64,000 nucleotides of DNA from Octopus vulgaris (lineage: Eukaryota), in assembly GCA_951406725.2 (NCBI GenBank), contig OX597820.1, forward strand, positions 80,786,001 to 80,850,000, in the 5' to 3' direction. A program made the translations under genes and the position numbers. The notes under the pieces are model-generated. The model had not been told where the DNA came from and did no database searches. It worked only from the letters and a program-made list of their open reading frames with translations. Shown here piece after piece: positions 1-63,895 of this stretch (within the stretch, counting starts at the first letter, position 1; each line of letters begins with the position of its first letter).

Positions 1-156
1 ATTTACAGGACAAATTGTCGAAAGCAATTTTAAGTAAAGATAAAGAGAGCTTAAGCAAATCTATTGACGAGTGTGAAGATACTGGTTACCTTGAATTGAG
101 CCCCTACCTGAAGAATGCAAGAGATATATTAGAAAGTCTTGGTGGAGGCCGTGGAG
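1..156 (+). CDS. Repeat exon 1 (type A, 5'-truncated by window)
   Basis: [51 protein letters not shown]; donor G|GTTAG. Confidence 0.85.

Positions 157-63895: not shown

Follow-up and report, generated by a model that had tools for sequence, protein, structure and literature searches.

The window, a stretch of 64,000 nucleotides from an Octopus vulgaris contig (OX597820.1, positions 80,786,001 to 80,850,000), contains 57 short repeat-coding exons, all on the forward strand (Table 1). These exons were detected by a search of all six frames with a profile built from motif seeds, and no others were found at a domain E of ≤1. All 57 are flanked by AG and GT, are in phase 1 and have lengths of 159–186 nt (mostly 174). 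Unsupervised PCA labels divided them into 29 type A and 28 type B exons. Neighbouring exons alternate in type at 55 of 56 steps, a level reached by none of 200,000 shuffles (best shuffle, 45). A near-strict A/B alternation with these counts, broken only at exons 15–16 (A,A), had been noted from the sequence alone and was confirmed. The tree proposed as a check also separated the classes by position: a maximum-likelihood tree built from 51 columns of the 52 distinct exons, whose bootstrap had not fully converged, places A and B on opposite sides of one branch with support of 99/98. Exons 49–57 are copies of one 2235-bp four-exon unit and 5 of the 57 exons are thus not independent. Intron lengths did not differ between A-to-B and B-to-A junctions (medians of 468 vs 542, p 0.19). 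Two intron-less double exons of 348 nt were found, both B-A (L015:7167-7514; L015:9809 to window 156). Four public ORFs (P0005–P0008, 44–63% identity), which look genomic, are B-A pairs too, and the B-A junction may lack its intron elsewhere as well.

Table 1. Features of the locus. Positions are counted from the window start; negative values lie upstream.
Feature	Position	Strand	Remarks
Transglutaminase-like region exons	about -57,625, -39,876, -31,836	same strand	
Three Ig-like_KY exon	-30,012 to -28,657	same strand	PF23265, three stretches, E 1e-58
Charged helical exon	-26,388	same strand	
Candidate link exon	-20,149		40 nt; restores phase 1, frame-compatible
57 repeat-coding exons	1..63895	+	repeats 17-73 of 184; ~58 aa each
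Exon 1	1..156	+	A; 3' half of intron-less 348-nt B-A double exon, start 191 bases before window
A exons (span 1..62890)	1-156, 2360-2533, 4564-4737, 7560-7733, 10467-10640, 11864-12037, 14367-14540, 15618-15791	+	
A exons (continued)	16912-17085, 18092-18265, 20812-20970, 23151-23324, 24489-24662, 26571-26744, 27383-27556	+	
A exons (continued)	28461-28634, 30636-30806, 39765-39944, 42074-42250, 46699-46872, 48604-48777, 52886-53059	+	
A exons (last)	54033-54206, 55534-55707, 57264-57437, 59627-59800, 60482-60655, 61862-62035, 62717-62890	+	
B exons (span 712..63895)	712-885, 3477-3650, 5701-5871, 9751-9924, 11477-11650, 12319-12492, 14937-15110	+	
B exons (continued)	17582-17755, 19313-19486, 21291-21464, 23811-23984, 25046-25219, 26978-27151, 27925-28098	+	
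B exons (continued)	28945-29130, 31220-31393, 40224-40397, 43437-43613, 47399-47572, 49301-49474, 53390-53563	+	
B exons (last)	54679-54852, 56022-56195, 59249-59425, 60113-60286, 61484-61660, 62348-62521, 63719-63895	+	
A-A junction, exons 15-16	15618..17085	+	only one in window; also in O. bimaculoides model
Exons 26-32	26571..30806	+	consecutive joins at predicted GT-AG sites, contigs from three runs
Tandem array start	59104..64000	+	~2235-bp unit, exons B-A-B-A, 233 aa
Three tail exons	about 172,487, 173,910, 175,600		

The motifs originally proposed as characteristic of each class are frequent but not strict, each being present in 12–19 of the 28–29 exons of its class, and are best termed usual. 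In A exons, the counts are 18/29 for ECE, 19/29 for YPEL and 12/29 for LGGGRG; in B exons, EC[VI][AS] is found in 17/28 and G[MFL]PELD.DI in 12/28. The classes differ at approximately 10 columns around the turn between helix 2 and helix 3, and in the tail. Of the alternating charged and hydrophobic faces that had been suggested, only a few columns at this turn remain. Mean net charge over the whole repeat is −0.2 for A and −1.4 for B. A recount confirmed that the split codon entering a B exon encodes Gly in 27 of 28 cases (exon 14 has Asp) and that the codon entering an A exon is variable (n=28: D 12, G 7, E 5, A 4). Exon calling required a G ahead of the GT, and this G supplies the first base of the split codon. 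The entering Gly is thus a conserved position that the B exon itself determines and, although conserved as claimed, provides no separate evidence for pairing. Exact GGGRG was present in 14/29 A tails.

A search of 414 kb around the window, in a genome of 2.8 Gb, returned 186 matches to the repeat. Removal of one partial duplicate and one weak match with a stop left 184 repeats spanning −19,636 to +171,453. The gene extends over ~233 kb and the window is its middle, with repeats 1–16 in the preceding 20 kb and repeats 74–184 plus the tail exons in the following 112 kb. Joining of 181 exons (i.e. repeats 1–183, with two double exons) produced 10,631 codons without a stop. Across all 184 repeats there are nine same-type neighbours, three of these among weakly typed terminal repeats. 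The repeats have a mean identity of 94% to an Octopus bimaculoides model and 95–100% identity to an O. sinensis model. No repeat-exon match lay outside C7 among the matches listed.

Upstream of the repeats, tblastn with the LTD-1-like protein P0152 matched a set of head exons (E 5e-24), encoding a transglutaminase-like region followed by Ig-like_KY stretches. The transglutaminase-like exons taken singly did not reach an E of 1e-4. In the Argonauta ortholog P0159, whose head is 84–94% identical to the upstream exons found here, the PF01841 domain scored 25.1 bits against a cutoff of 23. This Argonauta model joins the head to 10 repeats (matching repeats 1, 2, 166, 167, 174 and 180–184) and to the same tail. 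On these sequence grounds (i.e. same strand, a frame-compatible chain and the joined Argonauta model), head and repeats are predicted to be one gene, which is almost certainly a giant octopus member of the KY/hillarin/LTD-1 family. The full predicted product would be ~11,900 aa. The restriction of P0159 to the array ends suggests either that this model is a short isoform or that the gene is much reduced in the Argonauta lineage. Neither a signal peptide nor a membrane segment was evident in two public models, in which no 19-residue hydropathy exceeded 1.43. Repeats 175–179 (L024-L025, 151–158 kb from the window start) constitute a five-exon block missing from the Argonauta model and from three models of O. 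bimaculoides; a small gene of its own (P0003, P0156) has been annotated over part of the block, and repeat 179 is the most degenerate B. This block is possibly a rare or decaying cassette. The genome contains at least four further KY-like loci (C5:97451215, C14:75346172 and 75380138, C26:13339118, C8:97760170).

In the octopus head, the triad His before WNAV, which is kept in P0168–P0172 and P0175, is replaced by Asn, while the Asp is kept. No Cys is present within 8 residues before the helix motif of the head, near which we take the catalytic Cys to be expected. As the catalytic His is replaced and Cys is missing near its expected site, the head is likely to be non-enzymatic. A catalytically active transglutaminase or KY peptidase needs a Cys-His-Asp triad (PMC10848947). 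An inactive subclass of the transglutaminase-like family without the catalytic His, which the octopus head resembles, is described in PMC3718969.

Above the level of the A/B pair, a four-repeat periodicity was observed. In three of the four stretches tested (repeats 7–31 were the exception), repeats are most alike at lags 4 and 8, with an identity of 0.47–0.50 vs 0.42–0.45 at lags 2, 6 and 10. The B tails alternate between Gly-rich and non-Gly forms at 43 of 49 steps, matched in 0 of 100,000 shuffles, and B column 18 tracks the tail subtype. Type A repeats also vary with the preceding B subtype (Leu26 in 0/26 vs 12/23, p 1.5e-5, among 402 tests). Gly-rich linkers occur at about three of four junctions. 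The repeat units thus form a hierarchy of 58, 116 and about 233 aa, in which the predicted two-exon module of 116 aa is a real level but only one tier. Towards the window end, the four-exon unit enters a tandem array of 18 copies by assembly count, which continues for ~35 kb past the window (L016-L019) and adds ~3,960 aa. Units 1–17 contain 36 substitution and 8 indel columns, all intronic, and have identical exons (31% of the unit), a distribution with a P of about 0.001 if ~18 independent events are assumed. Such variation fits a real array under selection or homogenisation; sequencing errors favour low-complexity introns too. The 18th unit contains three diverged exons. The O. bimaculoides model jumps from repeat 65 to repeat 139, possibly due to a gap in that assembly.

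The differences between the two classes are not a simple relic of common descent. Differences at four-fold degenerate sites are near saturation in all comparisons (A-A 0.37, B-B 0.35, A-B 0.36; expected 0.31), whereas Glu31 is present in 54/54 A and 0/50 B repeats and Gly34 in 50/50 B repeats. Near-saturated silent sites together with fixed class residues indicate that class identity is maintained by purifying selection and not merely inherited. A set of 96 single-repeat matches with <70% identity to any exon here comprised 41 A, 52 B and 3 ambiguous sequences.

Splicing was examined in read contigs from four presumed-RNA runs covering exons 26–32; X5 and X7 are from one study and X9 is from another organism and study. 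One X7 contig joins exons 26-27-28-29 and one X5 contig joins 27-28-29-30, with exactly the predicted introns missing. The X9 contigs contain the joins 27-28, 30-31 and 31-32, while X1 has the unspliced form. In X9, a loose end behind exon 27 (B) matches, by eye, the start of exon 30 (A) at 25 of 28 bases, indicating a skip of A28 and B29; the runner-up among exon starts has 8 of 28 bases different from exon 30, and the loose end encodes the residues that model P0157 has at that point. This skip is one event in one run among the joints and loose ends listed. Public models omit an A+B pair (168–169), single exons (168, an A, and 173, a B) and longer blocks, which may represent isoforms or annotation gaps. 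Removal of exons in pairs, the proposed check, is seen in one contig; the public models also omit exons singly. Models of O. bimaculoides concatenate up to 87 repeats in genomic order. Since individual contigs run through four exons in a row, exons 26–32 are not a mutually exclusive pool; the observed skipping means that exon inclusion is not fully constitutive. The prediction of concatenation, as opposed to a pool of alternative cassettes, is upheld by contigs joining exons 26-27-28-29-30 and 30-31-32, but the term 'constitutive' was too strong.

Structures were predicted with AlphaFold2 for an 8-repeat public fragment, using an alignment of 51 single-exon rows that were all placed on one and the same repeat, and for a B-A-B fragment of 3 repeats. 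The longer model has three helices per repeat, a mean pLDDT of 88.7, a pTM of 0.31 and a dip at every linker; the shorter has a pLDDT of 77.3 and a pTM of 0.47. Each exon would, on these models, very probably encode its own three-helix bundle or 'bead'. Linker scores were 64–73 for A-to-B vs 66–85 for B-to-A in the 8-repeat model, and 68–70 vs 81–85 in the B-A-B model, where the comparison is confounded as more alignment rows cover B-A. These modelled scores lean against A-B as the stiffer junction. Neither model contains a confident inter-repeat arrangement, so an A-B interface is neither shown nor excluded. Pfam returned nothing above cutoff for 6 single exons or two long models, the best ESM Atlas score (0.79) was uninformative, the best PDB match by sequence (E 0.002) was to designed helical proteins and Foldseek with both models found no informative match. 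A wide structural search likewise produced no family above background, which says nothing on fold novelty. Single repeats superpose on many three-helix units over 50–62 residues at 1.7–3 A (Z 6.2–7.5), including TPR-like, MIT, BAG and spectrin units, with Z values typical of common helical arrangements; when a match extends over two repeats its rmsd exceeds 5 A, and sequence identity is 2–22%. Alpha-solenoids (TPR, ARM, PPR) and spectrin repeats stack regularly on their neighbours; the fold searches here matched single units.

Pairing of A with the following B was assessed by covariation. An unrestricted mutual information screen (50 A-B and 49 B-A pairs) was underpowered, and a within-repeat control in A failed too; A43 and the next B39 ranked first, with a score equalled in 7–13 of 150 permutations. 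Where A43 is basic, the next B39 is acidic in 30/30 cases, as compared to 10/20 where A43 is another residue (Fisher p 1.8e-5). Among charge-complementary column pairs in the 50 core pairs, A43-B39 was matched by 3–8 of 3000 permutations; on addition of the terminal repeats (53 pairs), the counts became 30/1 vs 12/10 and the signal was matched by 153–172 of 3000. The coupling exists at lag +1 and not at lag −1, and is present as a trend in both B subtypes and in both halves of the array, with a p of 0.28 for the window alone. Nothing comparable was detected from B to the next A among the charge-complementary column pairs (654–963 of 3000 permutations), and an expected A56-B39 coupling was not seen (p 0.29). 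The charge-complementary test family was chosen after A43-B39 had topped the screen, so the evidence from this pair is only moderate. By a helical-wheel estimate, helix 3 exposes columns 39 and 43 on the same face, and column 31 sits at the side of helix 2. Agreement with the A profile is poorer in the seven A repeats at AA junctions than in the remaining 47 (p 0.003), with most of the misfit in helix 3, and window exon 15 has the worst fit of all 54. The AA junctions at repeats 31–32 and 159–160 are kept in O. bimaculoides models. An obligate heterodimer is contradicted by the retention of AA junctions in two species and by the modelling of every repeat as a full bundle. The weaker claim that A packs on B draws support from the A43-B39 covariation, the decay at AA junctions and the skip of an A+B pair, but gains none from the AlphaFold2 models; a non-obligate A-to-B contact is, by a modest degree, the favoured reading.

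The explanation that we consider, as a whole, somewhat more probable than not is a giant KY-family gene with bead repeats, a weak contact from each A to the next B, and a product acting as a length-adjustable intracellular tether. A KY-family tail of few repeats would most likely have expanded by duplication of two-exon and then of four-exon blocks. Divergence of A and B would have produced a weak pseudo-dimer that spans the conserved, Gly-rich linker from A to B and in which helix 3 of A (Gly/Ser39, Arg43) may meet the helix 2-helix 3 end of the next B (Val/Ile31, Gly34, Asp39). The B-to-A junction would serve as a variable hinge with two linker types in turn. The symmetric phase-1 exons would permit splicing and copy number to alter length by whole modules. 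From family knowledge only, the head may bind a cytoskeletal anchor (i.e. a Z-disc-like, septin or actin structure) and the chain may span or buffer distance behind it. The tether role itself is drawn by analogy and is put forward tentatively.

The alternation could instead be a trace of block duplication among independent beads, each class being under its own constraint (e.g. a periodic partner outside the chain, or the need to keep like neighbours from misfolding together) and without contact between A and B. This possibility, which we regard as real but the less probable, has the attraction that duplication of several domains at once is described as a common mode of repeat expansion (PMC1553488) and that the newest expansion here is a four-exon block; the complete bundle in each repeat, the low global confidence of the models, the persistence of AA junctions across species and the non-significance of the unrestricted screen point the same way. 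It does not account for the direction of the A43-B39 charge coupling, for the decay of A repeats left without a B partner or for the removal of an A+B pair by the only skip observed. These three observations favour a weak A-to-next-B contact.

Packing at both junctions, or B-then-A as the true pair, would generate a stiffer rod or superhelix with the four-repeat segment (~233 aa) as its unit. The identity peaks at lags 4 and 8, the alternating B subtypes, the dependence of Leu26 on the preceding B, the higher B-to-A linker scores in both models and the B-A order of the intron-less double exons speak for such a rod. We nevertheless consider it improbable, since charge covariation from B to the next A is missing, B tails and the codon entering A make this the variable junction, and Gly-rich linkers recur at most junctions. 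Mutually exclusive or freely chosen cassettes with no long chain are very improbable. Dscam-type mutually exclusive arrays contribute one exon of the array per transcript. The symmetric phase of all exons, the 10-repeat Argonauta model and the existence of skipping would suit such an arrangement, but the contigs with four consecutive exons (26–29 in X7, 27–30 in X5) and the ordered chains of up to 87 repeats in O. bimaculoides are contrary to it.

The alternation is thus a real feature of a gene of the known KY/hillarin/LTD-1 family that follows a super-repeat logic like that of nebulin and titin, and the heterodimer claim is partly supported. As in KY, hillarin, LTD-1 and fungal Cyk3, a transglutaminase-like core (PF01841) is followed by three Ig-like_KY domains (PF23265). 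Weak versions of the octopus helical repeat, at most 6 per protein, are found in KY-family members of abalone, chiton, scallop and others; the abalone LTD-1-like proteins have the same head with 2–6 untyped repeats, and the 26 other head homologues compared each have 2 repeat matches at most. The octopus gene differs from the 0–6 repeats of these relatives in having 184, with one exon per repeat, two selected classes, a four-repeat super-period and a product of the length given above. Hillarin and LTD-1 proper have an N-terminal LIM domain, and PF00412 (LIM) is listed for Lingula hillarin, whereas none was detected in the Argonauta model P0159 at E≤0.01. KY is reported to localise to the Z-disc (PMC6078408), and hillarin and LTD-1 to the cleavage furrow and to septin/actin structures (PMC3718969); PMC6078408 gives no settled molecular role for KY-family proteins. 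A kyphoscoliosis peptidase, with the paralog unspecified, is among the proteins reported for an octopus mucus proteome (PMC11431876). The octopus gene was undescribed in the mainly open-access literature searched on the KY family and on giant muscle and repeat proteins of cephalopods.

A second likeness is to titin and nebulin, giant chains of small modules in which a higher-order period arises from block duplication (PMC1553488; titin super-repeats, PMC10665226). The nebulin triplicate region, as reported, consists of a near-identical multi-exon block in tandem (eight exons, 99% identity) and nebulin repeat exons are alternatively spliced (PMC11722492). The octopus repeats share with these super-repeats a position-specific conservation at periods of 2 and 4. 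They differ from nebulin in these periods (vs 7) and in having 18 copies that are >99% identical, and from both proteins in their module, a 58-aa unit predicted to form a three-helix bundle and lacking any Pfam match, whether to Ig/FnIII or to nebulin modules. The resemblance is one of working principle rather than family membership. Most known giant proteins that set length are built of Ig/FnIII or nebulin modules, and a 184-repeat cephalopod KY protein, grown from a few helical repeats, would represent a separate way of arriving at a giant tether of the cytoskeleton. In its boldest form, which we offer as speculation, the gene would encode an octopod ruler or spring on the scale of titin and nebulin (~1.3 MDa at most), with an unclassified three-helix repeat on a dead transglutaminase-like anchor, an A-B pseudo-dimer within a four-repeat super-repeat, and a length set at ~10–184 repeats by pairwise splicing and copy-number expansion. 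The repeats also provide a clean natural data set for deciding whether repeat alternation stems from history or packing, with A43-B39 as a testable residue pair.

Stretches matching the repeat profile (4–18 per protein) were found in protist and other proteins (P0009, P0022, P0033, P0112, P0125, P0133 and P0136, including one myosin and one EF-hand protein). The distant protist matches, whose similar Ala/Leu helical pattern may stem from homology or convergence, were set aside. Within the window, the intron between exons 31 and 32 (window 29400-30500) contains a multi-copy element on which many unrelated contigs of the four runs pile up, and the intronic segment at window 1500-1880 resembles by eye what is presumably a fragment of the end of a LINE-type retroelement.
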